NCBI RefSeq assembly: GCF_963921235.1
Contig: NC_086097.1
Coordinates: 98,024,001 to 98,088,000, forward strand
Length of the DNA stretch: 64,000 bases
Reading direction: 5' to 3'
Origin: Mobula hypostoma
Lineage: Eukaryota
Every line of letters begins with the position of its first letter. The first letter of the stretch is position 1. The notes beneath the pieces were generated by a model. That model made no database searches and had not been told where the DNA came from. It saw only the letters and a program-made list of their open reading frames with translations. This document shows, in pieces, positions 1,590 to 24,820 of the stretch. The translations under genes and the position numbers were made by a program.

Positions 1590-1751
1590 CCCTTGGATAA
1601 CACAAAGGCCATAGGACTTAGGAGCAGAATTAAGCCATTTGCCCCGTCAAGTCTGCTCCACCATTCCATTATGGCTATTCTGTCTCTCAACACCATTCTC
1701 CTGCCTTGTCCCATAACTGTTGACACCCTTAATAATCCAGAAACTATCAAC
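1590..1751 (-). mobile_element. CR1 3' end fragment, left half of the target split by the 22.7-kb insertion
   Basis: CR1 3'-UTR/ORF-end sequence (ggagcagaattaagccattt...gacacccttaataatccagaaactatcaac) that resumes at 24503. Confidence 0.75.
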
Positions 1752-1805
1752 ACTCACAACACGCTGGAGGAACTCAACAGGTCGGGCAGCATCTGTGGAA
1801 ACGAA

Positions 1806-1843
1806 CAGTCAACGTTTCGGGCCGAGACCCTTCATCAGAACTG
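1806..1843 (-). ncRNA. Minimal type I hammerhead ribozyme motif in Penelope pLTR
   Basis: Minus strand reads cagtt-CTGATGA-agggtctcggccc-GAAA-cgtt-gactg. Confidence 0.75.
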
Positions 1844-2006
1844 AAGAGGAAGGGGGCAAGGGCCCTATAAAGAAGGTGGGAGGAGGGTGGGAAGGAAAAG
1901 GCTGGTAGGTGCCAGGTGAAAAACCAGTGAGGGGAAAGATAAAGGGGTGGGGGAGGGGATGAGCAGGAAAGGTGAAGAAGGAATAGGAGAAAGCACAATG
2001 GGTAGT

Positions 2007-4458
2007 AACATAGAAACATAGAAAGTAGGTGCAGGAGTAGGCCATTCGGCCCTTCAAACCTGCACCACCATTCAGTATGATCATGGCTGATCATCCAACT
2101 CAGAACCCTGTACCTGCCTTCCCTCCATACCCGCTGATCCCTTTAGCCACAAGGGCCATATCTAACTCCCTCTTAAATATAGCCAATGAACTGGCCTCAA
2201 CTGTTTCCTGTGGCAGAGAATTCCACAGATTCACCACTCTCTGTGTGAAGAAGTTTTTCCTCATCTCGGTCCTAAAAGGCTTCCCCTTTATCCTCAAACT
2301 GTGACCCTTCGTTCTGGACTTACCCAACATCGGGAACAATCTTTCTGCATCTATCCTGTCCAATCCCTTTAGGATTTTATATGTTTCAATAAGATCCCCG
2401 CTTAATCTTCTAAATTCCAACGAGTATAAGCCTAGTTCATCCAGTCTTTCATCATATGAAAGTCCTGCCATCCCAGGAATCAATCTGGTGAACCTTCTTT
2501 GTACTCCCTCTATGGCAAGAATGTCTTTCCTCAGATTAGGGGACCAAAACTGTACACAATACTCCAGGTGTGGTCTCACCAAGGCCTTGTACAACTGCAA
2601 TAGTACCTCCCTGCTCCTGTACTTAAATCCTCTTGCTATAAATGCCAGCATACCATTCGCCTTTTTCACTGCCTGCTGTACTTGCATGCCCACTTTCAAT
2701 GACCGGTATATAACGACACCCAGGTCTCGTTGCACCTCCCCTTGTCCTAATCGGCCACCATTCAGATAATAATCTGTTTTCCTGTTTTTGCCACCAAAGT
2801 GGATAACCTCACATTTATCCACATTAAATTGCATCTGCCATGAATTTGCCCACTCACCTAACCTATCCAAGTCATCCTGCATCCTCCTGGCATCCTCCTC
2901 ACAGCTAACACTGCCACCCAGCTTCGTATCATCCGCAAACTTGAAGATGCTGCATTTAATTCCCTCATCTAAGTCATTAATATATATTGTAAACAACTGG
3001 GTTTTCAGCACTGAGCCTTGCGGTACCCCACCAGTCACTGCCTGCCATTCTGAAAAGGTCCCGTTTATTCCCACTCTTTGCTTCCTGTCTGCCAACCAAT
3101 CCTCTATCCACAGCAATACCATACCCCCAATACCGTGATCTTTAAGTTTGCATACTAATCTCCTGTGTGGGACCTTGTCAAAAGCCTTTCGAAAATCCAA
3201 ATATAACACATCCACTGGTTCTCCCCTATCCACTCTACTAGTTACATCCTCAAAAAATTCTATGAGATTCGTCAGACATGATTTTCCTTTCACAAATCCA
3301 TGCTGACTCTGTCCGATGATTTCACCGCTTTCCAAATGTGCTGTTATCACATCTTTGATAATTGACTCTAGCATTTTCCCCTCCACCGATATTAGGCTAA
3401 CCAGTCTATAATTCCCCGGTTTCTCTCCCCGTCCTTTTTTAAAAAGCGGGGTTACATTAGCCACCCTCCAATCCTCAGGAACTAGTCCAGATTCTAAAGA
3501 GTTTTGAAAAATTATCACTAATGCATCCACTATCTCTTGGGCTACTTCCTTAAGCACTCTGGGATGCAGACCATCTGGCCCTGGGGATTTATCTGCCTTT
3601 AATCCCTTCAATTTACCTAACATCACTTCCCTACTGACATGTATTTCCCTCAGTTCCTCCATCTCACTACACCCTCTGTCCCCTACCTTTCTGGAAGATT
3701 ATTTATGTCCTCCTTAGTGAAGACAGAACCAAAATAGTTATTCAATTGGTCTGCCATGTCCTTGTTCCCCATGATCAATTCACCTGTTTCTGTCTGTAGG
3801 GGACCTACATTTGTCTTAACCAATCTTTCTCTTTTCACATATCTATAAAAGCTTTTACAGTCAGTTTTTATGTTCCCTGCCAGTTTTCTCTCATAATCTT
3901 TTTTCCCTTTCCTAATTAAGCCCTTTGCCCTCCTCTGCTGGACTCTAAATTTCTCCCAGTCCTCAGGTGAGCCACTTTTTCTGGCTAATTTGTATGTTTC
4001 TTCTTTGGAATTGATACTATCCCTAATTTCCCTTGTCAGCCACGGGTGCACTACCTTCCCTGATTTATTCTTTTGCCAAACCGGGATGAACAATTGTTGT
4101 AGTTCATCCATGCGATCTTGAAATGCTTGCCATTGCATATCCACCGTCAATCCTTTAAGTGTCATTTGCCAGTCTATCTTAGCTAATTCAGGTCTCATAC
4201 CTTCAAAGTTACCCTTCTTTAAGTTCAGAACCTTTGTTTCTGAATTAACTATGTCACTCTCCATCTTAATGAAGAATTCCACCATATTATGGTCACCCTT
4301 ACCCAAGGGGCCTCTCACGACAAGATTGCTAATTAACCCTTCCTCATTGCTCAATACCCAGTCTAGAATAGCCTGCTCTCTAGTTGGTTCCTCGACATGT
4401 TGTTCAAAAAACCATCCCGCATACATTCCAAGAAATCCTCTTCCTCAGCACCCTTACC
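2007..4458 (-). mobile_element. 5'-truncated CR1 LINE (end of APE + RT)
   Basis: ORFs 3683..4426 and 2100..3662 ([31 protein letters not shown]); (TTTCTATG)n-type tail at ~2007. Confidence 0.95.
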
Positions 4459-7400
4459 AAGAAGGAGGTGGAACCATGAGGGGGGTGATAGGCAGCTGGG
4501 GGAGGGGGCAGAGTGAAAATGGGGTGGGGGAAGGGTGGGGGAGGGAATTACCAGAAGTTGGAGAATTCAATGTTCATAGCAAGGGGCTGAGACTACCCAG
4601 ACGGTATATGAAGGGTTGCTCCTCCAACCTGAGTTCGGCCTCATCATGGCAGTAGAGGAGGCCATGTATGGACATATCCGAATGGGAATGTGATGCAGAG
4701 TTGAAGTGGGTGGCAACCAGGAGATCCTGCCTGTTGTGGGGGATGGAGCAGAGGTGCTCGTTGAAGAGGTTCACCAATCTACGTCGGGTCTCACCGATGT
4801 AGAGGAGGCTGCACCGAGAGCACCGGATGCAATAGATGACCCCAACAGACTCACAAGTGAAGTGTTGCCTCACCTGGAAGGTCAGCTTGGGGCCCTGAAT
4901 GCTGGTGAGAGAGGAGGTGTAGGGTCAGGTGTAGCACTTACACTTACAGGGATAAGTGACGGGTGGGAGATCCGTGGGGAGGGATTTGTAGACCAGGGAG
5001 TCGCGGAGGGAACGATCCCTGCAGAAAGCAGAGAGGGGTAGAGAGGGAAAGATGTGCTTAGTGGTGGAGTCCTGTTGAAGGTGGCAGAAGTTGCGGAGGA
5101 TGATGTGCTGGATCCGGGGGCTGGTGGGGTGGTAGGTGAGGACAAGGGGAACTCTATCCCTGTTGTGGTGACGGGAGGATGGGATGAGGGCCGAAGTGTG
5201 GGAAATAGAGGAGATGCGGGTGAGGACATCATTAATGACGGCAGAAGGGAAACTACGACCCCTAAAGAAAGAGGACATTTGAGATGTCCTGGAACGGAAC
5301 CCCTCATCCTGGGAGCAGATGTGGTGGAGATGGAGGAACTGGGAATAGGAAATAGCATTTTTGCATGTGGCAGGGTGGGAAGAGGTATAGTCGAGGTAGT
5401 TATGAGAGTCAGTGGGCTTATAGAAGATGTCAGTGGACAGTCTGTCTCCAGTGATGGAGACCGAGAGGTCGAGGAAGAGAAGCAAAGTGTCCGAGATGGA
5501 CCAAGTGAATTTGAGGGCTGGGTGGAAGTTTGAAGTAAAGTCGATGAAATTGACGAGCTCAGGATGGGTGCAGGAAGCAGTATCAATGTAGTCGTCAATG
5601 TAGCAAAGGAAAAGTTGGGGAGCAGTACCACTAAAGGTTTGGAGCATAGACTGTTCCAAATAACCAACAAAGAGGCAGGCATTGCTGGGGCCCATGTGAG
5701 TGCCCATAGCTACACCTTTGGTCTGAAGAAAGTGGGAACAGCCAAAACAGAAGTTATTAAGTGTGATTATCAGTTCTTCCAACCGGAGGAGGGTAGTGCT
5801 GGTGGGGAACTGGTGAGGTCTATTGTCCAGAAAGTAGTGGAGGGCTTTGAGGCCTTCTTGATGGGGAATGGAGGTGTATAAGGATTGGACATCCATAGTG
5901 AAAATGAAGCGGTCGGGATCAGGGGACTGGAAGTCATTGAAGAGGTGGAGGGCATGGGATGTATCCCGGATGTAGGTGGGGAGGGACTGAACTATGGGTG
6001 ACAAAATGGAGTCCAGGTAGGCAGATACAAGTTCAGTGGGGCACGAGCAGGCAGAAACTATGGGTCTACCGGGACAGTCAGGCTTGTGGATCTTGGGGAG
6101 GAGGTAAAACCGAGCAGTGAAGGGTGTAGGAATCATGAGATTAGCGGATGAGGATGGAATGTCCCCGGAGTTGATAAGGGTGGTGATGGTACGGGAGGGA
6201 ATGGTTTGAATTTTTTTGGTGGGGTCCTGTTCCAGGGGTAAGTAAGAGGAGGTATCAGAGAGCTGCCTTTTGACCTCAGTGAGGTAGAGGTCCATCCGCC
6301 AGACTACTACGGCACCACCTTTGTCTGAGGGTTTGATGGTGAGGTTGGGATTAATGCAGAGAGAGTGGAGGGCAGTGCGTTCAGAGGGAGTGAGGTTGGA
6401 ACAGGAGAGAGGAGTGGTGAAGTTGAGATGGTTGATATCTCGGCGACAGTTGGAGATAAAAAGATCGAGTGCAGGTAGAAGGCCTGGGCGGGGTGTCCAG
6501 GAGGAAGAGGAGGGTTGAAGATGGGAGAACGGGTCATCAGAAGGGGGAAGGGAATCCTTGCCATACAAGTAGGCTCAGAGACATAGGCGATGGAAGAAGA
6601 GTTCAGCGTCGTGGCGGGCACAGAATTCACTGAGGTGTGGACGGAGGGGGACAAAAATGAGGCCCTTGCTAAGGACAGAACATTCTGCTTCAGAGAGGGG
6701 AAGGTCAGAGAGGATGGTGAACACATGGCAAGGGTTGGGGCTGGGGTCAGAGGAGGGTAAAGAGTGGGAGGTCTCAGGAAGGAGAGGGGATTGGGATATT
6801 CAGGGAGAGCGGGGTTAGGGGATGATGAGGGATCAGAGGAATGGGGGGCGATGGGGGTAGGGGGAAGGATGGGAGTCGCGGGGAGGATAGAGGGTAGTGT
6901 AGGTATAAGACGAGCGGTAGGAACCAGCAGCAGTAAGAGCAGTCCCGGTCTGGAGAGGGTCAGGACCTCGGTCTGAGCTGGATCTGGAGCTGGGGGTGGC
7001 AGAGCCTGTGGCCTACAGGGCCCCAGAACTGAGGTCGGAGTCAGAGGCGAGTGAGTCCTTGGCCCGCCGGGGGCTGGTCCCCATGTCCGGGAGGCCGTGG
7101 TCAGAGTCAGAGGTGGATGGGTCTTCGGCCTGCCGAAGGTCTGAGAGGTCAGGGTCTGAGGAGTCGGGGTCCGGGCTGGAACCGGTCGTCGTCGTAGGCT
7201 GCAGGCGGGCGAGCTTGTGGTCCTTCTTGGACGGGAGGAAGGAAAAGAAACGGCGGTTGGAGGCGTGAATCCGGCAGAGAATGAAGTGTAGGAGAGGTCC
7301 ATGGCAGACGGTGGAGAGTGAGGCCCGGAGTGGTGGTAGAGAGAGGGACAGGGCCCGTAGGTATCTCCGCATGGCAGTGAGCGTGGCGCGGAGAATCCGG

Positions 7401-7794
7401 CGGGAGCAGCGGTCAATGAAACGGAGGTATCTGGGATCCTCGCTGGGCCCGAACTGGGAGGCCTGGAACTGGAGCTGGAATCCCTGCGGTAACAGACGGT
7501 GGTGGAGACACGTTCCCAGGAAGGAGACGTGGCTGTGGGAGCGGGTCTGGGTCAGGATCTGGTTGAAGAGACGGAGAGAGGCGGTGATCACAGAGGGGGA
7601 GCAGTGAGAGAGGGTCTCACTGAACTCCCGTCGAAGGGAAGATTTAAACTTCTTCAGGGTAGGCATACCTCGAAGAGACTTCACAGTGGAGTAGCGAATC
7701 AAAACATAAAATTCTCTGCAGATGCTAGGGTCAAAACAACACGCACAACACGCTGCAGGAACTCAGCAGGTCAGGCAGCATCCGTGGAAACGAA

Positions 7795-7832
7795 CAGACA
7801 ACGTTTCGGGCCGAGACCCTTCGTCAGGTCTG
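7795..7832 (-). ncRNA. Hammerhead ribozyme motif (Penelope pLTR)
   Basis: cagac-CTGACGA-agggtctcggccc-GAAA-cgtt-gtctg. Confidence 0.75.
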
Positions 7833-8204
7833 AAGAGGGAGGGGGCAGGAGCCCTATAAAGGGGAAAGAAAGGGGAAAGATCAAGGGGTGGAGGAGGGGA
7901 TAGGCAGGAAAGGTGAAAAAGGAACAGGGAAAAGCACAATGGGTCGTAAAAGGAGGAGGAACCATGAGGGAGGTGATAGGCAGCTGGAGGAGGGGACAGA
8001 GTGAAACTGGGATAGGAGAAGGGAGGGGGAGGAAATTACTGGAAGTTGGAGAATTCTATGTTCATACCAAGGGGCTGGAGACTACCCAGACGGTATATGA
8101 GGTGTTGCTCCTCCAACCTGAGTTTGGCCTCATCATGGCAGCAGAGGAGGCCATGTATGGACATATCTGAATGGGATGGTGAAGCAAGTTAAAGTGGGTG
8201 GCAA

Positions 8205-8350
8205 TTATTATTGATATATTGTTTAACATTGTTAATCAGGTATTTGGCAATTTAATTCCTCATTGTACATATTGACATGTTGACTTGATTACTATATTTT
8301 TTTGTTCATCTTCAATAATAATTAATAAAAAAGATTTAAAAATGAAAATG
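8205..8350 (+). mobile_element. 146-bp AT-rich insertion, likely an L1-like 3' tail, with 13-bp TSD
   Basis: aagtgggtggcaa at 8192-8204 and 8351-8363; insert ends aataaaaaagatttaaaaatgaaaatg. Confidence 0.7.
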
Positions 8351-10085
8351 AAGTGGGTGGCAACCGGGAGATCCTGTCTGTTCTGGTGGATTGAGTGGAG
8401 GTGCTCGACAAAGCGGTCCCCCAATCTGCATCGGGTCTCACCGATGTAGAGGAGGCCGCACCGGGAGCACCGGATGCAATAGATGACCCCAACAGACTCA
8501 CAAGTGAAGTGTTGCCTCACCTGGAAGGTCTGTTTGGGGCCCTGAATGGTGGCAAGAGAGGAGGTGTAGGGTCAGGTGTAGCACTTAGGCTTACAGGGAT
8601 AAGTGCTGGGTGAGAGATCCGTGGGGAGGGACGTGTCGACCAGGCAGTTGCGGCGGGAACGATCCCTGCAGAAAGCGGAGAGGGGTAGAGAGGGAAAGAT
8701 GTGCTTAGTGGTGGGGTCCTGTTGAAGGTGGTGGAAGTTGTGGAGGATAATGTGCTGGATCCGGAGGCTGGTGGGGTGATGGGTGAGGACAAGGGGAACT
8801 CTGTCCCTGTTGTGGTGACGGGAGGATGGGATGAGGGCCGAAGTGCGGGAAATGGAGGAGATGCGGGTGAGGGCATCATTGACAACGGCAAAAGGGAAAC
8901 CATGATCCTTAAAGAAAGAGGACATTTGAGATGTCCTGGAACGGAACCCCTCATCCTGGGAGCAGATGTGGTGGAGATGGAGGAACTGGGAATACGGAAC
9001 AGCATTTTTATATGCGGCAGGAGGGGAAGAGGTACAGTCGGCGTAGTTATGAGAGTCAGTGGGCTTATAGAGGATGTCTGTGGACAGTCTGTCTCCAGAG
9101 AAGGAGACCGAGATCGAGAAAGGGGAGAGAAGTGTCCGAGATGGACCAAGTGAATTTGAGGTCAGGGTGAAAGTTAGAAGCAAAGTCGAAGGAATTGACG
9201 AGCTCAGCATGGGTGCAGGAAGCAGCACCAATGTAGTCGTCAATGTAGCGAAGGAAAAGTTGGGGAGCAGTACCAATATAAGTTTGGAGCATAGTCTGTT
9301 CCACATAACCAACGAAGAGGCATATGCGAGTGCCCATAGCTACACCCTTGGTCTGAAGAAAGTGGGAAGAGCCAAAAGAGAAGTTATTAAGTGTGAGTAC
9401 CAGTTCCGCCAACCGAAGGAGTGTAGTGGTGGTGGGGAACTGGTGAGATCTATTGTCCAGAAATTAGCGGAGGTCTTTGAGGCCTTCTTGATGGGGAATG
9501 GAAGTGTGTAAGGATTGGACATCCATGGGGAAAATGAAGCGGTCGGGACCGGGGAACTGCAAGTCATTGAAGAGGTGGAGGGCATGGGATATATCCCGGA
9601 TGTAGGTGGGGTTTGATTTCCTTCTTCACCTTTCCTCCCTATCCTCTCCTTGCTTCCCCTCCCCCACTCCTTCATCTTTCTCCTTGCTAGTTTTTCAAAC
9701 CAAACAGTGCGGTGTGTGGGAATCATGAGTTTTGTGGCTGACGATGGATGGTCTCCGGAGTTGATAAGGGTGGTGGTGATGGTATGGGAGACAATGGTTT
9801 GATTTCCTTCTCTGCCTTTCCTGCCTATCCTCTCCCTGCTTCCCCTACCCCACCCCTTGATCTTTCCCCTTATTGGTTTTTCACCTGGCACCTACCAGCC
9901 TTCTCCTTCCCACCCTCCCCCTACCTTCTTTATAGCGCCCCGCCCCCTCCCTCTTCAGTCCTGATGAAGGGTCTTGGCCCAAAACATTGACTGTTCATTT
10001 CTACGGATGCTGCCCGACCTGCTGAGTTCCTCCAGCGTGTTTTGCGTGTTGCTTTGACCCCAGCATCTGCAGAGAATTTTGTGTT

Positions 10086-10795
10086 TCCAATGAAGTTACG
10101 TTGCCTTTTCATGATCTCATACATTATTTTTCTTTTTGTTCTTGCTCTGTTCATGACATCCTCGTTAGATATTCGTTTTGTCCATGATATTCTTGGCATC
10201 CTCCTCAAAAACCACATCTCTGCTGCTTCAATTCGTTTCCTCATGTTACTAGATATTGTCCAACATTCTCAGCCATATTACAGAACTGGATAAACGTAAC
10301 ATTTCAGTACTCTGAGGTGGGTTGTCATGCCTAGTTTAGTGTTGGTCAGTATACTCTTCATTCTCGTAAAGGTGTCGTTTGCCATCCCTATTCTTCTTTG
10401 ATGTCCATGTCGCACCTGCCATCTGATTTCACCCAGATTCCTCAGTAGCAAAAGCTCTGTACTTGTTTTATGTCTTCCCCATTTATTCTCAGCCTGCAGA
10501 TAGGATTCTCCTTCTTTTTGGATATCACCATACATTCTGTCTTTTTGCAATTGATAGATAGACAACAGTGTGTTTTCTCCCCTGATTTGTTTAATGTGTA
10601 CAGTGAAACAATAGTACAAAAAATAAGAGACATCTTGGTGGTGAAATCATCAATAATTTCAGATATGCAGATGACACTGTGTTAAATGCAAATACGGAGG
10701 AAGAACTGCAAAATTAATTGATATACTTGTTGAAGAAAGTGCAAAAATGGGTCTATCTATCAATTGCAAAAAGACAGTATGTACGGTGATATCCA
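10086..10795. mobile_element. RTE-clade LINE fragment with internal inversion (minus ~10086-10563, plus ~10564-10795)
   Basis: RIEAAEMWFLRRM.RISWT and RVLKCYVYPVL on minus; QQCVFSPDLFNVYSE on plus. Confidence 0.8.
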
Positions 10796-11780
10796 GTAGA
10801 ACAAGGAATTCCATTATCAGCATTGCCTCAGAGTCATGGTCAAGGGAGAGTGAGGGGCACTCACAGGAAGCATGGCCACAAAATTACCATGTTGAAATGA
10901 AAATGGACACCTCCTCTCCCCCTCCCAACAAGCACCAGTCACTAGAGGCTTCATTCTTTACTTTCACTATTTGGTGTTGGTTTATTATTGTCTCATGTAC
11001 TGAGATAGAGTGAAAAGCCTGACTTGCAAACTGTTGATACCGATCAAAACATCACACAGTGTAGAGGTAGAACAAGGTACAACAATGACAGAACGCAGAA
11101 TAAAGTGTAACTGCTCCATTGAGGTGCAGTGCTGGAAAACAATAAGGTGCAAGATTATAACAATTGACATTGTGAGGTCAACAGTCCATCTTATCACAGT
11201 AGAGGAACATTCAACAGAACACAGAACATTACAGCACAATACAGGCCATTCAGCCCACAATGTTCTGATAGTTTATCCTGATCCAAGATCTATGTAACCC
11301 TTCCCTCCTATGTGGCCCTCAGTCTCTCCCTCATCCATGTACCTATCAAGAGTTTAATTGTTCCTACTGTGTCTGTCCTAAATTCAATGACGGACGGGGT
11401 AGAAGCTATCCTCGAGCCTGTTGGAAAGTATTTTTGTGCTTTCCTATCTCCTGCCCGACGGGAGGGGGGGATAAGACAGAATATGGGAGGGGTCTTTGAT
11501 TGTGCCGGCTCTTTTACTGAGGCAGTGAGAAATGTAGAAGAGTCCAAGGAGGAGAGGAAGATTTCTGTGATGTGCTCAGTTGTGTCCGTAACAACCTGCA
11601 TTTTCCAAAAGTCACATGCTTGATCATGATGAGGTAGATTGTGATGTCATTATGATCCAGTAACTGACCACAAGAAACTGCAGGCTGAGTGCAGTTCATC
11701 TGAGTGCAGACGGAGAGGCTAGTCTCCTTGAGGTGCTGAGCTGCTTCGTCAAGATTTTCTTAGAATTACACACAAAATCT

Positions 11781-15225: not shown

Positions 15226-15261
<36 letters not shown>

Positions 15262-15805
15262 CTGAGACCCGTCTGCAGGACTCAGCCTGATGGAGAATGT
15301 TGGCCTGAAGTGTTGGCTCTTTATTCCTCACCATAGATGCTGCCTGACCTGCAGAGTTCCTCCAGTATTTTAGGGCACCACAATAGCAGAGTGGTTCGTG
15401 TGATGTTGTTGCTGCTCGGTCAGGGATGGGGGGCAGGGAGTGGGCAGGTAATAATTCAAAGTTCAATACCAGTGCCGTGTGAAAGGAGTTTGTATATTCT
15501 CCCCGTGACCATGTGGGTTTCCTCCTGCAGTTCGAAGAAGGCTGACTGGTCATTGTAAATTTTCCTGTGATTAGGCTGCTGTTAAATAGGTGGGGTGTTG
15601 GGCGATGTGGCTTTTTGGAGAAGAAGGGCCAGTCCCACAGTGTATCTCTGAATAGATGAAGTGCTGTGAATAAATAACTTTGTGTGTGTGTTACTCTGAA
15701 TTTCCAGCTTCTGCAGAATCTCTTGTGCTTGTGAATCTGTGACTGAATCTCTTGTTCTGATCTCTGCTGCCGTTTTACTCTCTCCCCCAACCCGACCCCT
15801 TGCAG

Positions 15806-16245
15806 TCTCAATCGACGACATCAAAGAATTAAGACCTGGTCACCAGACGGAGGGAATGCAGCGGTACGCCACCGAGATACCCACCGACCGCTGTTTTACC
15901 ATCATATTTAAGGGCACGAGGGAGAACTTGGATCTGGTGGCCTCCGACGCCAGCGAGGCCTGGCATTGGATCCACGGTCTTGCCAAACTAAAGCAGAGAG
16001 GCTGCAGAATGAACAACAGAGAGCGGCTGGGCCAGCATCCATCTAGGAGGGTTGTCACGGCAGAGCGCCACGGAGAGAGGGGCCACTTCCCTCATGGTCT
16101 CCAACAGCAGCCCCCAAGTCCACTCCTACTCCACGCCGAAGGTCAAAGGCACCTCCCCATGTTAGAAACTTTTGCTGCTTGTTTCCCCAATGTGACTTAC
16201 ACTTCCCTCAGGCCCTCAGACTCCGTAGATTCCATTAGTTATTAA
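15806..16245 (+). CDS. Exon 3 of PLC-delta-like gene (C-half of PH domain; homology ends ~16034, reads through to TAA 16243-16245)
   Basis: ttgcag| acceptor, phase 1 giving F-SIDDIKELRPGHQTEGMQRYATEIPTDRCFTIIFKGTRENLDLVASDASEAWHWIHGL, which resembles PLCD1 [59 protein letters not shown]. Confidence 0.9.
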
Positions 16246-16289
16246 TGGTTTTTTAGTATTAGTTTAATAGATAGTCAATCCTTAGGTTT

Positions 16290-16887
16290 CATAGAAACAT
16301 AGAAACATAGAAAATAGGTGCAGGAGTAGGCCATTCGGCCCTTCGAGCCTGCACCGCCATTTATTATGATCATGGCTGATCATCCAACTCAGAACCCCGC
16401 CCCAGCCTTCCCTCCATACCCCCTGACCCCTGTAGCCACAAGGGCCATATCTAACTCCCTCTTAAATATAGCCAATGAACTGGCCTCAACAGTTTCCTGT
16501 GGCAGAGAATTCCACAGATCCACCACTCTCTGTGTGAAGAAGTTTTTCCTAATCTCGGTCCTAAAAGGCTTCCCCTCTATCCTCAAACTGTGACCCCTCG
16601 TTCTGGACCTCCCCAACATCGGGAACAATCTTCCCGCATCTAGCCTGTCGAATCCCTTTAGGATCTTATACGTTTCAATCAGATCCCCCCTCAATCTTCT
16701 AAATTCCAACGAGTACAAGCCCAGTTCATCCAGTCTTTCTTCATATGAAAGACCTGCCATCCCAGGAATCAATCTGGTGAACCTTCTTTGTACTCCCTCT
16801 ATGGCAAAGATGTCTTTCCTCAGATTAGGGGACCAAAACTGCACACAATACTCCAGGTGTGGTCTCAACAAGGCCTTGTACAACTGC
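16290..16887 (-). mobile_element. 5'-truncated CR1 LINE
   Basis: ORF 16389..16883 (RPHLEYCVQFWSP, RRLRGDLIE); (catagaaa)n tail. Confidence 0.93.
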
Positions 16888-16909
16888 CTTGTTTCAACAT
16901 GTTATAGGT

Positions 16910-19900
16910 ATTATAGGCTAAACTTAAGTCCTCTGAGAGGAGGACCCCCCACAAAAGCCACAAAGAATCTATGGAAAAGATACCCCCGGGGTGCCTGAGA
17001 GGGGGGAATGATGAGCACCCCAGTCGGATGGACACAACAACATCAGACCCAGGCAATGAACAAACGACGATGAGGAAGCAGTGTGCATGTGGCAAAATCT
17101 GCAAGAACGATCGTGGCTTGAAGATCCACCAAGCGAGGATGAAGTGTTTGGCGGGAGCGGGAGCAGGAGCAGCACAACGCGCAGGTGTCCAACCTGGTGA
17201 GACGAAGGAGGGGCCAGGCCCGGAGTCACCCCATAGTGCCCGGAACCTCCATGTGTTGCAAACTAATCCCTCGAACATGAAGTCTAACAGGAGGTGGATC
17301 AAATGGCCTGCAGCTAACATGACTTCACTGTGGAAGCAGTTTGATGACCATGTTAACCAAATTCTGGAGGCAACGGCGAAGGGGAGGGTTGATAGGAAGT
17401 TGCAAGCCATGACAACAATTATCGTTAGTATCGCAGCTGAACGGTTCGGAGAAGAGGAGAAGGAAGGCTCCAAAACACCTTACTCGAAGAACCAAAGAGC
17501 ATCGAGGATCCACAACATCAGGCAGGAGGTGAAAGCGCTGAAGTCCCAATACAAGTAGGCGGGAGAAGAGGAGCGCATTGGCTTGGCCCAGCTGATGTAC
17601 ATACTACGAAAGAAGATCAGGGTCCTCCGCCGGGCAGAGTGGAGGCGGCGTCATGAAAGGGCCTGAAAACATGCTGCCTTTATCGCCAACCCCTTCAAGT
17701 TCACCAAGGCGTTGCTGGGGGAGAAGCGCAGTGGGAAACTGGCCTGTTCACAGGAAGACATAGACCAACATCTGAAGAAGATATATAATGATCCTGAAAG
17801 AGAGCAGGAGTTGGGAGAGTGCAACATCCTAATAGACCCACCTGAACTGGATGTGCAGTTCGACGTGTCAGAGCTGCAACTAAAGGAAGTCAGAGAGGTC
17901 GTCCGCAAAGCAAGGGCAAGTTCGGCTCCAGGACCAAGCAGCACCTCGTACAAAGTGTACAAGAATTGCCCCAAACTCCTGCTGCGTCTGTGGAAGATCC
18001 TGAGAATCTTCTGGAGAAGGGGGAAGATCCCAGAACAGTGGAGAGTGGCTGAAGGGGTGTGGATCCCGAAGGAGGAAAATGCCACCCAGATAGATCAGTT
18101 TCGCATCATCTCCCTGCTGTGTGTCGAGGCAAAGATCTTCTTCAGTGCAGTTTCCAACCGGTTGTGCACCTACCTAGCAAAGAACACCTATATTGATACA
18201 TCGGTCCAGAAGGGTGGCATTTCAGGGATGCCGGGCTGTCTGGAGCACATCGGTGTGGTGACACAGCTCATCAGGGAGGCCAGAGAGAACAAGGGCAACC
18301 TGTCAGTGTTGTGGCTGGACCTGGCAAATGCATATGGCTCCATTCCGCACAAGCTGGTGCAGCTCACACTGACCAAATATCACATCCCCAGCAGAATCAG
18401 AGACCTTATCGCTGATTATTACAGCAACTTCAGGATGAGGCTCTCTTCAGGAGCAATTACATCAACCTGGCACAAGGTGGAGATCGGCATCATCACAGGG
18501 TGCACTATCTCAGTGACACTGTTCTCCCTAGCCATGAACATGCTCACTAAGTCTGCTGAACCAGAGTGCAGAGGGCCCAGAATGAATTCCGCTCAACGGC
18601 AACCACCTATCAGGGCATTGGATGACCTCACAGTCACCACAGAATCAGTCCCAGGCTGCCGGTGGATTCTGCAAGGGTTCGAAAAGCTGGTGGAGTGGGC
18701 CCGGATACGTTTCAAACCTGCCAAATCAAGATCGATGGTGCTGAGGAAAGGGAAGGTGGAGAACAAGTTCCGGTTCAGCATCGCAGGCACAGCCATGCCA
18801 ACCATCACAGAAAAGCCAGTCAAGAGCTTAGGCAAAGTTTTTGACAGCTCTTTAAGGGACACAACATCCATTCAGGCAACCTGCACCGAGTTGGATGGCT
18901 GGCTGAAATCTGTGGACAAGTCTGGCCTACCTGGGAAGTTTAAAGCCTGGGTGTATCAGCATGGCATTCTTCCCAGAATCCTGTGGCCCCTCCTCGTCTA
19001 CGCAGTTCCGATCTCGACAGTCGAAACCTTAGAGAGGAGGTTTAGCAACCACCTCAGGAGATGGCTGCGGCTGCCAAAGAGCCTGAGCAGCATCGCACTC
19101 TATGGACACCACAACAAACTGCAACTGCCCTTCAAGTCCTTGGAGGAAGAATTCAAGGTAATAAGAGCCAGAGAAGTGCTACAGTATAGGGACTCAAGTA
19201 ATCCGAAAGTGGCTAGAGCAGGGATCCAAGTAAGTACTGGCAGGAAGTGGAGGGCAGAGGAGGCTGTTCAGGAGGCAGAGGCGAGGCTGCGTCACGGGAG
19301 GCTGGTGGGAGTGGTCACACAAGGCCGAGCTGGGCTAGGATCCTTTCCAACTCCCCAACTGGACACCAGAGGGAAGGAAAGGCGTCGTCTAGTTCAGGAG
19401 GAGGTGAGAGCAGTAGTGGAGGAGATGGGAGCCTGCAAGGCGGTGGGAATGAAGCAACAGGGAGCTTGGACAAGATGGGAGAATGCGGTTGAGAGGAAAA
19501 TGACCTGGGCTGATCTTTGGAAAGCCGAACCACACCACATCCAATTTCTCATCCAGGCAGTGTACGATGTGCTTCCAAGCCCATCAAACCTGCACACATG
19601 GGGCAAGGCAGAGTCATCTGCGTGCCCACTGTGCTCCAAGCGAGGAACCCTGGAGCACATCCTCAGCGGCTGTGCAAGAGCACTTGGTGAGGGACGGTAC
19701 CGATGGAGGCACGATCAGGTCCTGAAGACCATCGCTGAAGCCATCAGCGCAGGAGTTCAGTGGGCGAAGCGGTTCCGACCCTCCACAGACCATTGCCTTT
19801 GTCAGAGCTGGGGTGCAGCCAATACCTGCCAAAAGAACATCTGCAGGCATTCTGACCTCTGCAATGGACTGGCAGCTGAAGTTCCCCAACCGTATCGCAG

Positions 19901-20387
19901 CCACCACCCTGCGACCAGACATTATCCTTGTGTCTGAGTCTACTAAGCAAGTGGTGCTGCTGGAGCTGACAGTCCCATGGGAAGATAGCTTGGAGGAGGC
20001 CTTTGAAAGGAAGCTCTCCAAGTACGCAGGACTGGTCAGCAATTGCCAGCAGGCTGGTTGGGAGAGCAAGGTGCCTCCCAGTGGAGGTTGGTTGTAGGGG
20101 ATTCATAGCCCATTCTTTAGTTAGAGCCTTCAGCATTTTGAGCATCGAGGGAGAGAGGAAGAGGAGAGCCATCCGCAGTACCACCGATGCGACAGAGAGG
20201 GCCTCAAGATGGCTGTGGCTCAAAAGAGGGGAGTCATAAGTAGCTAGCCATCTGGACACAAGCTGAGGTCTGATCAGCCCCGGCTGGGTCACCTGGAGGA
20301 GGTTGTATGATGTTGAAAGACCCGAAACACCCGATAATTCCAGGAACATCACTGAAGATGTGTCCAGAAGCATCAATGTACACAGCA
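16910..20387 (+). mobile_element. Hero/NeSL-type (R2-group) non-LTR retrotransposon with restriction-like endonuclease; near full length, with stops and frameshifts
   Basis: N-terminal zinc finger CACGKIC...IHQARMKC; RT (APGP, WLDLANAYGSIPH, GIITGCTIS); CPLC..GTLEHILSGC; RHD; RPDIIL..ELTVPWE..KY; PVEVGCRGF. Candidate TSD atgttataggt (16899-16909) / atgttacaggt (20388-20398). Confidence 0.88.
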
Positions 20388-20889
20388 ATGTTACAGGTGT
20401 TTATGAAAAATAAAGTTACTTTAAAGCTCTGAGTGAGATACTTTATTGATATAATATTCTTCCAATCAGCGACGAAAATGCAATTAATATTTTGTTTTTA
20501 CAACCAATGCTGATGGTGGATGAAACCCTGTTTGCAAAATACGTCAGGCACTGCATTTTAAACGAGTAATGAATCCTCTATGTCGTCCTACCATCAAAGA
20601 AGGATGCTTCGTTACACAAGCCATGATATTTTCCAGCGGAATTTTGTTTTTCAAAAATACTTCCACCTTTTGTACCTGTCTTCAACTTTCAGGATAAAAG
20701 CATTTCCTCACTGCTGTAATCTCACGTGAAAAAGTATCAATATTGAATATACATGTAAAAATAAAACTAGCTTTTTCGGCAGGTTCTCAGATAGTGTCAC
20801 AGAGTCTGAGCAAAGTACAGCACCGAAACAGGCCCTTCAGCCCATCAAGTCCATGCCAAACTATTTAAGCTGCCTTCTCCCATCGATCA

Positions 20890-21206
20890 GAGAAGATTCA
20901 TGAGGATGATTCCAGGAATGAAAGGGTTACCGTATGAGGAACGTCTGGCAGCTCTTGGGCTGTATTCCCCGGAGTTCAGGAGAATGAGGGGGGGGGTCTC
21001 ACTGAAACATTCCAAACATTAAAAGGCCTGAACAGATTAGATATGGCAAAGTTATTTCCCACAGTAGGGGAGTCTAGAAAAAGAGGGCACAACTTCAAGA
21101 TTGAAGGAACAGAGATGTGGAGAAATTACTTTTGTCAAAGGGTGGTATGTCTGTGGAATTTGTTGCCACCAGTGGCTGTGGAGGCCAAGCCACTGGATGC
21201 ATTTAA
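20890..21206 (+). mobile_element. CR1 3' ORF fragment
   Basis: LFPTVGESRKRGHNFKI...QRVVCLWNLLP. Confidence 0.8.
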
Positions 21207-22520
21207 GGCCCTTGCTAAGGACAGAACGTTCTGCCTCAGAGGGGGAAGGTCAGAGGGGATGGTGAGGACACGGCAAGGGTTGGGGCTGGGGTCAGAGGAG
21301 GGTAAAGATTGGGAGGTCTCAGGAGGCAGAGTGGGGTTGGGATGTTCAGGGAGAGCGGGGTTAGGGGAGAATGAGGGATCAGAGGAATGGAGGGGGATGA
21401 GGGGTAGAAGGAAGGTTGGGAGTCATGGGGAGGATAGAAGGTAGTGGAGGAATAAGACGAGCGGCAGGAACCAGCGGCAGTAAGAGCAGTCCCGGTCTGG
21501 AGAGGGTCAGGACCTCGGTCTGAGCTGGATCTGGAGTTGGGGGTAGTGGAGCCTGTGGCCCGCAGGGCACCTGAACTGAGTTCTGAGCCAGAAGCGAGTG
21601 AGTCCATGGCCTGCCGGGGGCTGCTGCCCATGTCCCGGAGGCCGTGGTTCCAGTTGGGGTCAGAGTAAGAGGCAGATGGGTCTTCGGCCTGCCGAAGGTC
21701 TGAGAAGTCGGGGTCTGAGGAGTCGGGGTCCGGGCAGGAGCCAGTCGTCGTCGTGGGCTCCAGACGGGCGAGCTTGTGGTCCTTCTTGGACGGGAGGAAG
21801 GAGAAACGGTGGTTGGAGGTGTGAATCCAACGGAGAATGAAGTGTAGGAGAGGTCCATGGCAGACGGTGGAGAGTGAGGCCCGGAGTGGTGGTAGAGAGA
21901 GGGACAGGGCCCGTAGTTATTTCCGCATGGCAGTGAGCGTGGCGTGGAGAATCCGGCGGGAGCAGCGGTCAATTAAACAAAGGTATCTTGGAGCGTCGCT
22001 GGGCCCGAACTGGGAGGCCTGGAACCAGAGCTGGAATCCCTGCGGTACAAGATGGCAGTGGAGACACGTTCCCAGGAAGGAGACGTGGCTGTGGTAACGG
22101 ATCTGGGTCAGGATGTGGTCGAAGAGTCAGAGAGAGGCGGAGATCACAGAGTGAGAGAGAGTCTCACTGAACTCCCATTGGAGAAAACATTTAAACTTCT
22201 TCAGGTTAGGCAGACCTCGAAGAAACTTCACAGTGGAGTAGCGAATCAACACATAAAATTCTCTGCAGATGCTGGGGTCAAAGCAACACGCACAACACGC
22301 TGGAGAAACTCAGCAGGTCAGGCAGCATCCGTGGAAACAAACAGACAACGTTTCGGGCCGAGACCCTTCGTCAGGTCTGAAGAGGGAGGGGGCAGGAGCC
22401 CTATAAAGAAGGTGGGGGGAGGGTGGGAAGGAGAAGGCTGGTAGGTGCCAGGTGAAAAACCAATAAGGGGAAAGATCAAGGGGTGGGGTAGGGGAAGCAG
22501 GGAGGGGATAGGCAGGAAAG
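21207..22520 (-). mobile_element. Penelope 5' region plus upstream pLTR; direct repeat of ~6661-7860
   Basis: ggcccttgctaaggacagaac... matches 6661 onward; ORF 21379..21972 parallels 6307..7416; hammerhead at 22342-22379. Confidence 0.9.
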
Positions 22521-24502
22521 GCAGAGAAGGAAATCAAACCATTGTCTCCCATACCATCACCACCACCCTTATCAACTCCAGAGACCATCCATCGTCAGCC
22601 ACAAAACTCATGATTCCCACACCCCGCACTGTTTGGTTTTACCTCCTCCCCAAGATCCACAAGCCTGACTGTCCCGGTAGACCCATAGTTTCAGCCGGAT
22701 CCTGCCCCACCGAACTTGTATCTGCCTTCCTGGACTCCATTTTATCTTCCATAGTTCAGTCCCTCCCCATCTACATCCGGGATACATCCCATGCCCTCCA
22801 CCTCTTCAATGACTTCCAGTTCCCTGATCCCCACCGCTTCATTTTCACTACGGATGTCCAATCCTTATACACTTCCATTTCCCATCAAGAAGGCCTCAAA
22901 GCCCTCTACTACTTTCTAGACAATAGATCTCACCAGTTCCCCACTACAACTACCCTCCTCCGGTTGGCGGAACTGGTACACACACTTAATAACTTCTCTT
23001 TACTTTCTTCAGACCAAGGGTGTAGCTTTGGGAACTCGCGTGGGCCTCAGCTATGCCTGCCTCTTCATTGGTTACGTGGAACAGACTATGCTCTAAACTT
23101 ATACTGGTACCGCTCCCCAACTTTTCCTTCGCTACATTGACGACTACATTGGTGCTGCTTCCTGCACCCATACTGAACTCGGCAATTTCATCAATTTTGC
23201 TTCTAACTTTCACCCAGCCCTCAAATTCACTTGGTCCATCTCGGACACTTCTCTCCCCTTTCTCGATCTCTCGGTCTCCATCTCTGGAGACAGACTGTCC
23301 ACTGACATCTTCTATAAGCCCACTGACTCTCATAACTACCTCGACTATACCTCTTCCCACCCTGCCACATGCAAAAATGCCATTCCCTATTCCCAGTTCC
23401 TCCATCTCCGCCACATCTGCTCCCAGGATGAGGGGTTCCATTCCAGGACATCTCAAATGTCCTCTTTCTTTAAGGATCATGGTTTCCCTTCTGCTGTCAT
23501 CAATGATGCCCTCACCCGCATCTCCTCTATTTCCCGCACTTCGGCCCTCACCCCATCCTCCCGTCACCACAACAGGGACAGAGTTCCCCTTGTCCTCACC
23601 TACCACTTCACCAGTCTCCAGATCCAGCACATTATCCTCTGCAACTTCCGCCATCTTCAACAGGACCCCACCACTAAGCACATCTTTCCCTCTCTACTTC
23701 TCTCCACTTTCTGCAGAGATCATTCCCTCCGCGACTCCCTGGTCCACACATCCCTCCCCACGGATCTCCCACCCGGCACTTACCCCTGCAATCCTAATTG
23801 CTACACCTGACCCTACACCTCCTCTCTCATCAGCATTTAGGGCCCCAAACAGACCTTCCAGGTGAGGCAACACTTCACTTGTGAGTCTGTTGGGGTCATC
23901 TATTGCAACCAGTGCTCACGGTGCGGCCTCCTCTACATCGGTGAGACCCGACGCAGATTGGGGGACCGCTTTGTCGAGCACCGCCACTCCGTCCGCCACA
24001 ACAGACAGGATCTCCCGGTTGCCACCCACTTCAACTCTGCTTCCCATTCGGATATGTCCATACATGGCCTCCTCTACTGCCATGATGAGGCCAAACTCAG
24101 GTTGGAGGAGCAACACCTCATATACCGTCTGGGTAGTCTCCAGTCCCTTGGCATGAACATTGTTTCACTCTGCCCCCTCCCCCAGCTGCCTATCACCTCC
24201 CTCATGGTTCCGCCTCCTTTTACGACCCATTGTGCTTTTCCTTGTTCCTTTTTCACCTCTCCTGCCTATCCCCTCCCCCACTCCTTGATCCCCCTTACTG
24301 GTTTTTCACCTGGAACCTACCAGCCTTCTCCTTCCCACCCTCCCCCCACCTTCTTTATAGGGCACCTGCCCCCTCCCTCTTCAGTCCTGACGAAGGGTTC
24401 CGGCCCGAAACGTTGACTGTTCGTTTCCACGGACGGTGCCCAACCTCCAGTGTGTTGTGAGTGTTGCTTTGACCCCAGCATCTGCAGAGTATTTTGTGTT
24501 TA
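22521..24502 (+). mobile_element. Inverted Penelope 3' half (RT, GIY-YIG, pLTR)
   Basis: FYLLPKIHKPDCPGRPIVS; YIDD; GIY-YIG ORF 23862..24416; pLTR ends ttttgtgttta at 24502. Confidence 0.92.
24382..24419 (+). ncRNA. Hammerhead ribozyme motif (Penelope pLTR)
   Basis: cagtc-CTGACGA-agggttccggccc-GAAA-cgtt-gactg. Confidence 0.75.
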
Positions 24503-24820
24503 CAAGAAACTATCAACCTCTGCAATAATATATCCAATGGCTTGGATTCCACAGATACACCACCCTCTGGCTAAAGAAATTCCTCCTCATCTCTGTTCTC
24601 AAGGGATTCTGAGGCTGTGCCTTCTGGTCCCAGACTCCCCAACTATAGGAATCATCCTCTCCACATCCACTCTATCTAGGCCTTCCAATTTTCGACAGGT
24701 TTCAATGAGATCCTCCATCATTCTTCTAAACTGCAGTGACTCCAGAGCCATCAAACGCTTCCCATATGTTAACCCTTTCATTCCTGGAATCATTCCCATG
24801 AACCTCCTCTGGGCCCTCTG
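24503..24820 (-). mobile_element. CR1 fragment, right half of the split target (continues 1590-1751)
   Basis: caagaaactatcaacctctgc...accaccctctggctaaagaaattcctcctcatctc; ORF 24599..24799 is the CR1 C-terminus. Confidence 0.78.

Follow-up and report, generated by a model that had tools for sequence, protein, structure and literature searches.

A Penelope-framed chimeric gene cassette bounded by a target-site duplication within a CR1-like LINE of Mobula hypostoma

A block of 22.8 kb in the genome of Mobula hypostoma is a genuine insertion: it interrupts a LINE, and it has both a target-site duplication and true Penelope ends. It lies within the 64,000 nucleotides analysed here (the window: NC_086097.1, positions 98,024,001 to 98,088,000), at 98 Mb of a 256-Mb contig referred to below as C1. 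Between its Penelope parts the block carries what is, to judge from its sequence, a splice-competent three-exon gene: a transmembrane helix, 11-amino-acid repeats, a PH domain of PLCD1 type and a novel tail. The central issue is how such a cassette came to occupy the site, and our tentative answer, in which our confidence falls somewhat short of an even chance, is that Penelope machinery may have integrated it ready-made into the CR1-like LINE.

Evidence for insertion comes firstly from the flanks. The interval between 1751 and 24503 interrupts one older CR1-like LINE fragment (3′ region, minus strand), whose left half occupies 1590–1751 and whose right half occupies 24503–24830. The first-pass annotation had the fragment breaking at 1751 and resuming colinearly at 24503, and both halves indeed fit an intact member of the family: on that element the left half stops at position 208 and the right half starts at 195, an overlap that consists of exactly the duplicated bases and indicates that 13–15 nt are single-copy there, with ctctgc directly after. 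The last 15 nt of the left half (1737–1751, ccagaaactatcaac) and the first 15 of the right (24503–24517, caagaaactatcaac) agree today at the 14 of 15 positions originally reported. The left copy carries caag in three of three paralogous junctions, reading caagaaactatcaac at C1:97.1 Mb and C45:60.17 Mb and caagacactatcaac at 63484, in the window's own tandem copy; the right copy is unchanged in all four paralogues found. Together these point to an ancestral duplication matching at 15 of 15 positions. Within this genome the flanks of the insertion site match filled paralogues only.

About 6.5 kb of the block is LINE sequence nested later; with this subtracted, the block would have measured ~16.2 kb when formed. 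The first nested element, CR1-like (2008–4459, minus; RT frame 2103–3698, RVT_1 3e-30), is 94% identical to window positions 38346–40804 and is missing at C45:60.17 Mb, where 2007 adjoins 4460. A 596-bp LINE 3′ fragment (16292–16887, minus) is missing from C1:97.1 Mb, C1:93.97 Mb and the C45 copies, and a further LINE (16888–20386, plus; 756-aa frame 17667–19934 with RVT_1 at 1.8e-16 and zf-RVT) is missing from C1:93.97 Mb and from the C45, C2 and C5 copies.

Penelope sequence starts at 1752 in minus sense and ends at 24502 in plus sense, so that just inside both junctions lie outward-pointing 3′ ends, the inverted, tails-out arrangement described at first pass. A 40-nt tail (24463–24502) is present at the right end and missing at the left; a tail of 30–40 bp at one end only is a described signature of Penelope-like elements (PLEs; PMC3846280, PMC8557442, PMC11167929). 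The leftmost part (1752–2007, minus) is the 3′ end, or pLTR region, of a full-length Penelope, copy A; it points left, lacks the 40-nt tail and contains a hammerhead core at 1815–1838. The body of copy A (4460–7701, minus), the reverse complement of which defines body coordinates 1–3242, holds degenerate RT and GIY-YIG frames. Frame 4928–6574 (minus) matches RVT_1 at 8e-8, and motifs can be read by eye: FYLLPKIHKP...RPIVS and YIDD, along with VIY...YIGET...R...E of GIY-YIG type. The LPKIHK-type and YIDD motifs are ones we take to be typical of PLEs. The GIY-YIG profile itself (PF01541) is matched by the putative GIY-YIG frame of the right-hand truncated Penelope described below, over positions 2–67 of 78 at E 0.0032 and 18.2 bits, under the 22.6-bit cut-off.

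Two copies of a composite structure, module M, frame the cargo. The left copy (7702–10091) has three parts: a full tail (minus, 7702–8118), body 3240 to 1490 (minus, to 9805) and a partial tail (plus, 9829–10086). Its interior is inverted relative to four other copies (segment 7867–9697, compared with C1:98.09, 97.1 and 93.95 Mb and C45:60.17 Mb), the flip occurring between copies that are 98.7% identical; at C5:104.3 and C2:143.9 Mb the interior has the window's orientation. To the right of the cargo lies X′, the 5′ 1042 nt of the Penelope body (21206–22250, minus; homologous to 6660–7701), followed by the right module M: a partial inverted pLTR (22251–22530, minus; tail 400 to 170, hammerhead core 22351–22374) and a 5′-truncated Penelope (22531–24502, plus; body 1490–3240 and 3′ end, GIY-YIG frame from 23841, hammerhead core 24387–24410). 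Body position 1 abuts the tail terminus at 7701/7702 and 22248/22251 – the partial tandem, or pseudo-LTR – and the adjacent inverted arm is truncated at body 1490. The minimal hammerhead core CTGANGARGG-N-CCCGAAA occurs five times in the window versus none in 100 shuffles, and a search of Rfam matched no family at E ≤ 0.1. Both outer Penelope tails (1749, 24452) read cacTcacaac, and the inner ones carry G, as first observed, the inner G tails being three in number (7738, 10037, 22285). The T variant marks the outer tails at both loci where both outer ends are visible (the window and C5:104.3 Mb); G is found in five inner tails that match the probe, the window's three and two at C45:60.17 Mb, the inner tails of the C5 copy being unmatched by it.

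The cargo begins at a junction in which Penelope sequence ending ttttgtgttt meets ccaatgaag. Its first part (10092–16291, plus), colinear copies of which occur on C45, C2, C5 and C36, comprises an upstream region and the three-exon gene; its second (20387–21205, plus) ends in an inverted CR1-like fragment (20888–21207), another copy, with its break 5 nt from the hit position of the flanking LINE. Exon 1 (11781–13062, plus) runs from an ATG through a TM-like helix, the 11-aa repeats (~17 copies, a 33-bp minisatellite at 12038–12594) and a basic region to a phase 1 donor, G/GTAAAA. It is open, with ATG and GT, in five of five C1 copies; neither a homologue nor a Pfam family was found for it. Exon A (14158–14349, plus; AG acceptor, GT donor, phase 1 at both ends) encodes the N-terminal half of a PLCD1-type PH domain (tblastn with ray PLCD1, 5.6e-16). 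Exon B (15806–16245, plus) encodes the C-terminal half to 16035 (2.9e-20 to the PLC-delta-1 PH domain, PDB 1mai) and then a 69-aa novel tail ending in DSISY and a stop. Annotated ray proteins of 147 aa and 162 aa are colinear with exon B through this tail. Other ray genome annotations label such pieces short ‘PLCD1-like’ or ‘PLCD3-like’ proteins.

Introns with GT-AG borders are kept between the three exons, and in this the cargo is unspliced, as had been supposed. The earlier description of three PLC-delta-like exons holds for the two PH halves (14158–14349 and 15806–16035) but not for 11781–13062, which is unrelated to PLC. Nor is the cargo a fragment of the host PLC-delta gene, as was then thought: it is a member of a multi-copy chimeric family, and the true PLCD1a lies on another contig (C5:222.14–222.23 Mb), where 31 kb separates the PH exons. 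The PH domain specified by exons A and B is 65–72% identical to that of ray PLCD1a, with the position and phase of the PH-internal intron in common. The first exon of the cargo and its novel C-terminal tail are unlike anything in PLCD1a, and no EF-hand, X, Y or C2 exon was found in the window: a tblastn search of the whole window with two full PLCD1 proteins recovered only the two PH exons, none of 52 genome hits to PI-PLC-X falls in the window, and the Pfam scans took in all plus-strand frames of at least 30 aa in 9800–21600 and 42 of 101 long frames window-wide. Whatever the mechanism of its movement, the cargo represents a lineage-specific family of chimeric genes, hitherto undescribed, that takes its PH domain from PLC-delta-1.

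That copies of the cargo might exist elsewhere had been anticipated, and a genome-wide search found many: at least 41, on at least nine contigs, mainly on a contig other than the window's. Older copies, 28–30% diverged, lie on C52 and C55, and weak exon-B matches also on C54. Penelope–cargo junctions match in every copy read across them, which suggests a single origin of the association, at some other site. Cargo boundaries and the inversion junction within M (tail ~160 to body 1490) recur unchanged on C45, C2 and C5; in a search with the M junction 25 of 41 rows span it, 24 of these within 10 kb of a cargo copy. The family has spread mostly through tandem arrays on one contig, with a unit of 7.85 kb (2 kb of Penelope 3′ sequence plus cargo), and through segmental duplication. 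Other C1 copies, which carry both junctions together with their flanks, are segmental duplicates and do not stem from transpositions of their own: the colinearity of C1:97.1 Mb with the window extends over positions 197–27800, both junctions included, and the copy at C1:98.09 Mb continues a 61.7-kb tandem repeat. C45:60.17 Mb has the left junction in common with the window locus, the boundary between LINE and copy A being 93.6% identical between C1 and C45:60.17; the right flank was found on C1 only.

A tree of the cargo start region places the LINE-flanked copies (six C1 rows and C45:60.17, compared with C2, C45:68.07, C45:70.44 and C45:49.53) in one clade with support of 99/98. This clade is nested inside the family under a root that is midpoint only, older copies being unalignable in this region. 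The nesting suggests that the cassette probably reached the LINE site ready-made, and that the cargo is not ancestral here; the possibility of ancestral PLC exons, raised at first pass, is answered in the negative to the extent that midpoint rooting allows. The X′ of the LINE-flanked lineage is nearer to copy A than to the X′ of the C5 copy, and the copy A found in the paralogue at C1:97.1 Mb falls in with the X′ clade (96/96). Further Penelope-bounded copies with duplications of their own, which had been looked to as support for mobility, were found at neither of two more dispersed loci that we inspected: at C5:104.3 Mb the copy ends in exact Penelope termini and has no target duplication, and C2:143.9 Mb is truncated within Penelope at both sides. 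The window locus is the one duplication-bounded example found.

PLEs cut and extend both strands of the target, and their reverse transcription starts at either of two sites ~40 nt apart; these properties fit Penelope carriage, our best explanation. That the cassette would have travelled by RNA through Penelope enzymes, and not by recombination, is a best guess. Integration into the LINE fragment would have produced the 15-bp duplication and the two outward Penelope 3′ ends, and the integrated unit would have been a pre-existing one: module M, a ~7-kb unspliced three-exon gene, then X′ and module M. The right arm could have been copied off a long read-through transcript ending in a Penelope 3′ end and the left arm (full-length copy A plus upstream pLTR) off Penelope RNA, the two cDNAs being joined within the common pLTR/5′ region. 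Later, three LINE pieces nested in the block, the interior of the left module flipped between its inverted tails, and segmental duplication took the whole locus, flanks and all, to C45:60.17 Mb and to a number of sites on C1. The tandem arrays at other loci would have been generated by unequal crossing-over of flanking direct Penelope modules.

In favour of Penelope carriage are the perfect ancestral duplication around the whole block together with the colinear LINE halves; the tail at one end only, as described for PLEs; the RT and GIY-YIG frames, partial tandem, inverted 5′-truncated arm and hammerhead cores; the outer T and inner G tails; and the nested clade (midpoint rooting) within a family on at least nine contigs. 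That the cassette pre-existed is suggested by the recurrence of cargo boundaries and M inversion junction on C45, C2 and C5. Against this stand the single duplication-bounded example, the array at C45:49.5 Mb, which ends without LINE flanks or Penelope termini, and the fact that most visible amplification is at the DNA level (tandem arrays, flank-sharing C1 paralogues). Carriage also requires an RNA no shorter than 12.7 kb from which two canonical introns had not been removed, and a homology-guided join of two cDNAs; the closeness of copy A to X′ calls for gene conversion or in-situ duplication; and the root is midpoint only, older copies being unaligned in the cargo start region.

The first-pass annotation left the choice between PLE transduction, which is our best guess, and recombination into a resident PLE. 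The latter we consider unlikely, though a serious contender: a tails-out Penelope pair would have made the duplication, and ectopic recombination or conversion with an array would then have copied in M, cargo, X′ and M, the Penelope arms serving as homology and no RNA copy of the cargo being involved. The family does recombine via Penelope parts, as the tandem unit attests, and the interior of M has flipped among near-identical copies; the grouping of copy A with X′ at C1:97.1 Mb suggests conversion; kept introns and inverted segments require no special pleading; and outer T with inner G tails suits a resident element with an overwritten interior. However, a conversion tract of more than 10 kb would be needed between ~10%-diverged repeats on different chromosomes, the resident head-to-head junction would have to be overwritten too, since both M copies carry the family-specific junction, and the exact Penelope termini at C5:104.3 Mb go unexplained unless the same events took place there.

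It is improbable, in our estimation, that Penelope and gene were first joined at the ancestral LINE site, from which all Penelope-associated copies would descend. Such a join might have come, for example, from template switching at integration, or from replication-based templated insertion in which 3.3 kb of Penelope became duplicated around the gene. The full structure of copy A, pLTR and truncated inverted arm does resemble one primary PLE integration, of which X′ plus M would be a truncated derivative; the junction of LINE and copy A is old, about as deep as the main radiation of the family; and copy A and X′ are mutually close. But the LINE-flanked copies form a single derived clade (midpoint rooting), the LINE flank is kept at none of three other loci or array ends examined and the right flank only on C1, and a cargo junction exactly at a Penelope terminus together with a 3.3-kb duplication is demanding of a single event. 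Scarcely credible is the notion of no insertion at all (a chance 15-mer, or two LINE copies abutting Penelopes inserted independently around a native gene), for although Penelopes are abundant here and the LINE fragment at the cargo end, whose break is 5 nt from where the flanking LINE was hit, hints that this LINE family offers a preferred target, the two halves line up on an intact element with exactly the duplicated bases in common, the ancestral match is 15 of 15, and the cargo family lies mainly on another contig with the flanked clade nested (midpoint rooting only).

A bolder form of Penelope carriage, which we hold to be doubtful, is that a cartilaginous-fish PLE may repeatedly have retro-mobilised a cassette of at least 12 kb with an unspliced chimeric host gene, and so have seeded a family that recombination later enlarged to more than 40 copies. 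Selection would have kept the C1 copies open, as is suggested by two frame-restoring indels of independent origin in that subfamily's C-terminal tail. If true, it would be the first PLE-driven gene-family expansion in a vertebrate, and the cargo by far the largest transduced by a PLE outside rotifer Terminons.

PLEs are, to our knowledge, the least understood class of retroelements, and we know of intron retention and host-gene carriage by them from a few rotifer examples only. A clean 16-kb duplication-bounded cassette with more than 40 related copies would extend PLE capacity in host range and size, and the locus offers a concrete test system for PLE carriage in its termini, tail and read-through RNA. 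A literature search found no vertebrate case of a Penelope-framed gene cassette.

Comparison with known systems is instructive. Canonical EN+ PLE insertions (Penelope, Poseidon and Neptune), as described in PMC8557442, PMC11167929 and PMC4209133, have RT with C-terminal GIY-YIG, a partial-tandem pLTR, an inverted 5′-truncated neighbour, a one-end tail, a minimal hammerhead core in the repeats and a short target-site duplication; all have counterparts here, those of the GIY-YIG domain and the hammerhead being putative. Unlike them, the present block holds ~7 kb of non-Penelope genic DNA between its Penelope parts. Terminons, the giant telomeric PLE-related elements of bdelloid rotifers, are alike (PMC6431247) in being large PLE-based units with hammerhead motifs that capture host genes between neighbouring array elements, but they have EN-deficient Athena RTs and attach to telomeric repeats; the putative GIY-YIG frame, target-site duplication and non-terminal position of our locus do not match a Terminon. 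Penelope-mediated mobilisation of intron-containing host genes, members of NRPS and LRR families, is reported for Adineta vaga (Arkhipova, Yushenova and Rodriguez 2013, PMC3846280). There the units are framed by pLTRs alone, whereas here 2.3–3.3 kb of Penelope makes up the frame, EN region and a piece of 5′ body included, a full-length inverted Penelope adjoins it, the unit measured ~16 kb when formed (22.8 kb at present) and has a vertebrate host, and most copies are tandem arrays or segmental duplicates. Like the present locus, with three exons and their GT-AG introns between two M modules and an inverted copy A on the left, the A. vaga units as there described enclose an unspliced gene of a multi-copy family within direct Penelope terminal repeats, and have one inverted repeat to the side, a short target-site duplication around the whole and an optional tail at one end: a Penelope-framed, duplication-bounded gene arrangement so far described only in rotifers.

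That the Penelope-framed block at 1752-24502 is an insertion is shown by the junctions with the CR1-like LINE fragment that it splits. The left 15-mer (1737-1751) reads ccagaaactatcaac, the right 15-mer (24503-24517) reads caagaaactatcaac, and the stretch directly between the two, from 1752 to 24502, starts and finishes in Penelope sequence. An intact LINE of this family, in locus L037, served as the reference for aligning the two halves one by one: its position 208 is the last matched by the left half, and its position 195 the first matched by the right. The bases in the overlap are thus single-copy in the intact LINE, where ctctgc follows directly, and the target site has the context ...ctaatcaagaaactatcaacctctgc.... 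The first-pass annotation had taken the CR1 halves to be colinear, and the overlap at 195-208 bears this out. Paralogous junctions account for the single mismatch. All three paralogous left 15-mers start with caag, the sequence being caagaaactatcaac at C1:97.1 Mb (C1 is the contig of the window, which covers C1:98024001-98088000) and at C45:60.17 Mb, and caagacactatcaac at 63484, in the second copy inside the window; the right 15-mer is identical in 4/4 paralogous right junctions. The duplication was accordingly perfect (15/15) at the time of insertion, and the mismatch arose later in the window copy.

At its end the cargo carries a piece of a different CR1-like copy, inverted (20888-21207), whose break lies 5 nt from the insertion position in the flanking LINE; this LINE family is a possible preferred target of Penelope.

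The Penelope parts were measured against an uninterrupted body (7701-4460, minus strand; 3242 positions). By this ruler the left arm is a full-length minus-sense element, copy A (1752-2007 and 4460-7701), split by a nested LINE (2008-4459), and its 5′ end adjoins a complete tail terminus at 7701/7702, a partial tandem (pLTR) arrangement. On the right lies a module, M (22251-24502), in which an inverted pLTR of ~245 bp is joined to a plus-sense copy running from body position 1490 to the 3′ end; a second M (7702-10091) lies on the left and has its own interior inverted, and X′ (21206-22250) corresponds to body positions 1-1042. The two termini differ by 40 nt (24463-24502), present on the right and missing from the inverted end on the left. 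A tail variant noted at first pass proved real: T in the outer tails (1749, 24452) and G in the inner ones (7738, 10037, 22285). The frames match RVT_1 in Pfam, and a GIY-YIG-like domain falls under the cut-off (E 0.0032), its motifs being readable by eye. Five minimal hammerhead cores occur in the window versus none in shuffles; Rfam returned no family with E<=0.1 over window positions 1-28000. Published accounts of Penelope-like elements (PLEs) describe partial tandems, an adjoining inverted truncated copy, a tail of 30-40 bp at a single end and short duplications, and have both target strands cut and extended, with two reverse transcriptase start sites defining the tail (PMC3846280, PMC8557442, PMC11167929). 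Because the layout in the window is the published one, both ends of the block are authentic Penelope integration ends.

An older Penelope subfamily, ~75% related, is present at 25952-27493 and in L037 (C45:60178192-60181214). Its copies on C45 are paired in inverted, tails-out orientation, in support of that arrangement being usual for Penelope insertions in the Mobula hypostoma genome. The orientation of the left M interior (7867-9697) varies among copies: C2 and C5 agree with the window; the downstream paralogue (98.7% identical) and three further copies have it reversed. Either this segment has flipped repeatedly between the inverted tails, or its orientation is an assembly error. Elsewhere in the window, 50573-54623 (plus strand) holds frames of LTR-retroelement type, with DUF7041, reverse transcriptase, RNase H, and integrase zinc-binding and core domains.

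Between the Penelope parts lies the cargo (10092-16291 and 20387-21205), interrupted at 16292-20386 by two later LINE insertions that are absent from older paralogues. Three PLC-delta-like exons had been proposed; tblastn of two full-length PLCD1 proteins against the whole window recovered two and not the third. We read the cargo as an intron-containing chimeric gene comprising exon 1 (11781-13062, from ATG to G/GTAAAA), exon A (14158-14349) and exon B (15806-16242 plus stop), all of whose introns are GT-AG and of phase 1. The predicted product of 637 aa has a TM-like helix, ~17 repeats of 11 aa, a basic region, a full PH domain and a 69-aa tail. Pfam gave one PH match, a PDB search the PH domain of PLC-delta-1 (2.9e-20), and a protein search ray PLCD1a proteins at 71-75% identity together with two annotated proteins of only 147 and 162 aa that are colinear with the read-through tail of the window; the N-terminus of the 162-aa protein corresponds to the last part of exon 1 joined by splicing to exon B. 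No PLC catalytic exon was found in the window, and the exon-1 protein had neither a homologue among 8000 scored candidates nor a Pfam family. The true PLCD1a lies elsewhere, at C5:222.14-222.23 Mb.

The PH-domain exon of PLCD1a (residues 88-165) occurs twice with equal score, at C5:222171745 and at C5:222250314, the latter beyond the last exon match seen for PLCD1a. Intronless open frames resembling PLC (844-883 aa), each with a complete PI-PLC-X domain, lie at three sites, C5:167142222-167144735 (L026 1722-4235), C91:35.50 Mb and C18:146.19 Mb, and may be retrogenes. One, translated, gives 837 aa from the first ATG and looks PLC-eta-like by eye; a PLC-eta-like intronless ORF was too distant a probe to find the cargo exons. 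A PLC gene at C1:99.48 Mb, whose motifs look by eye to be of beta type, shows no link to the window locus and was set aside.

Exon 1 is open, with its ATG and GT, in all five C1 copies; it carries 7 stops in the C45:49.53 Mb unit, and the C45:60.17 Mb copy is without its end. The reading frame of exon A is open in all but one of 12 copies; its acceptor, readable in 11, is AG in 4, all on C1, and TG in 7/7 C45 copies. For exon B, all 12 copies keep the PH part open and 5/12 an intact tail. A 1-nt loss in the tail is common to every C1 copy (alignment over 15980-16110); afterwards the frame was regained by +1 nt in the 98-Mb copies and by -5 nt in the 93.97-Mb copy, the 97.1-Mb copy being still broken; two independent restorations are a hint of selection in the C1 subfamily. 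We do not take the PH exons to be under purifying selection: dN/dS spans 0.30-1.30 over 36 pairs (below 0.9 in 33), but dN (0.09-0.13) is as high as the divergence of the non-PH sequence next to it (0.08-0.10), which the PH part even exceeds. Given this match, most cargo copies look neutral.

The window takes part in a 61.7-kb tandem segmental duplication of 99.5% identity: 1-2253 equals 61748-64000 at 99.5%, and the match runs on into C1:98088001 and beyond. In the downstream copy the cassette segment 9841-24033 occurs twice, 14.8 kb apart. The C1:97.1 Mb copy is colinear with 197-27800, both junctions included, and the C1:93.97 Mb copy covers the right junction. With 40 candidates scored per flank, the right flank was found on C1 only, and the left flank (1278-1751) also at C45:60.167 Mb, where the LINE and copy A meet as in the window and are followed by an unsplit copy A, M and cargo as far as 12815; the same searches for an empty site gave filled paralogues and unrelated repeats alone.

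Across the 3.48-Gb assembly there are at least 41 matches to the 401 bp around exon B (40 of 129 candidates scored), 26 on C45, 5 each on C1 and C5, and one each on C80, C2, C36, C55 and C52. A protein search gave weak exon-B matches (59-67% identity) on C52 and C54, and longer queries found colinear cargo copies. Cassette copies are mostly clustered in arrays on C45, a 117-Mb contig, at 49.5, 54.9-55.1, 60.2, 61.2, 63.3, 68.1, 70.4-70.6 and 71.1 Mb. One C45 array repeats a 7.85-kb unit of Penelope (22477-24505-like) and cargo (10092-16290 plus 20387-20648-like), running from the 22477-equivalent to the 23259-equivalent without LINE flanks, as expected if direct Penelope repeats on either side had undergone unequal crossing-over.

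The C2 and C5:104.3 Mb copies share the M-cargo-X′-M layout of the window. Of 41 rows, 25 span the inversion junction of M (40 of 3305 candidates scored), and among the matches listed 24 of these 25 have a cargo copy no more than 10 kb away, the sole exception being C75:33.77 Mb (84% identity), where the 800 bp examined contained no Penelope end and was thus uninformative. It follows from the common layout and this proximity that Penelope and cargo were joined once. The gene family predates that association, since ~70%-identity copies on C55 and C52 have cargo segments in common and in the same order (13124-13678, 15318-16151 and 20501-20793, each copy having some of these). An old Penelope-tail-like fragment (15285-15365), inside the intron preceding exon B, recurs in both other copies checked, at C45:49.5 Mb (77%) and C55:49.4 Mb (74%), and is therefore older than the present Penelope frame.

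Whether the cargo was native to the site was addressed with a tree built from its first part (10100-10860; 11 rows, matches <450 nt dropped, the C45:60.17 row joined from two neighbouring stretches and C5:104.3 Mb left out). C45:60.17 groups with the six C1 rows in a single clade (support 99/98), and C2, C45:68.07, C45:70.44 and C45:49.53 fall outside this LINE-flanked clade under midpoint rooting. On that root, which is not secured, the tree agrees with a cassette that was already complete when it reached the LINE site, once, and that was then spread by segmental copying. We tentatively favour, at a little under an even chance, one-step transfer of the cassette by Penelope. A perfect duplication surrounds the entire unit, whose ends are authentically Penelope; outer tails are T-type at both loci with visible ends (the window and C5:104.3 Mb) and inner tails are G where typed (the window and C45:60.17 Mb); and copies are dispersed over at least nine contigs. 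Against it, the Penelope-bounded copies with duplications of their own that the first-pass annotation had looked to were found in 0/2 other dispersed copies, with none seen at C5:104.3 Mb, in a survey of copy ends that left out most copies (among them C36, C80, C5:36.8 and 213 Mb, and the C45 arrays at 55 and 70 Mb); moreover, amplification is visibly DNA-level for the most part, a long unspliced RNA would be needed, and copy A and X′ seem homogenised within the lineage. Stepwise recombination into a resident Penelope would account for the same end structure and is an unlikely though serious alternative; a tree of copy A and X′ did not separate the models. An origin of the Penelope-cargo association at the LINE site of the window itself is distinctly improbable, and chance deserves hardly any credence, a small part of the probability being left unassigned.

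The literature searches turned up no vertebrate host gene framed by Penelope, which is no proof of absence. For one-step transfer by Penelope there is a parallel in rotifers, where PLE-mediated gene transfer has a precedent in passages of PMC3846280 that are echoed in parts of PMC8557442 and PMC6431247.
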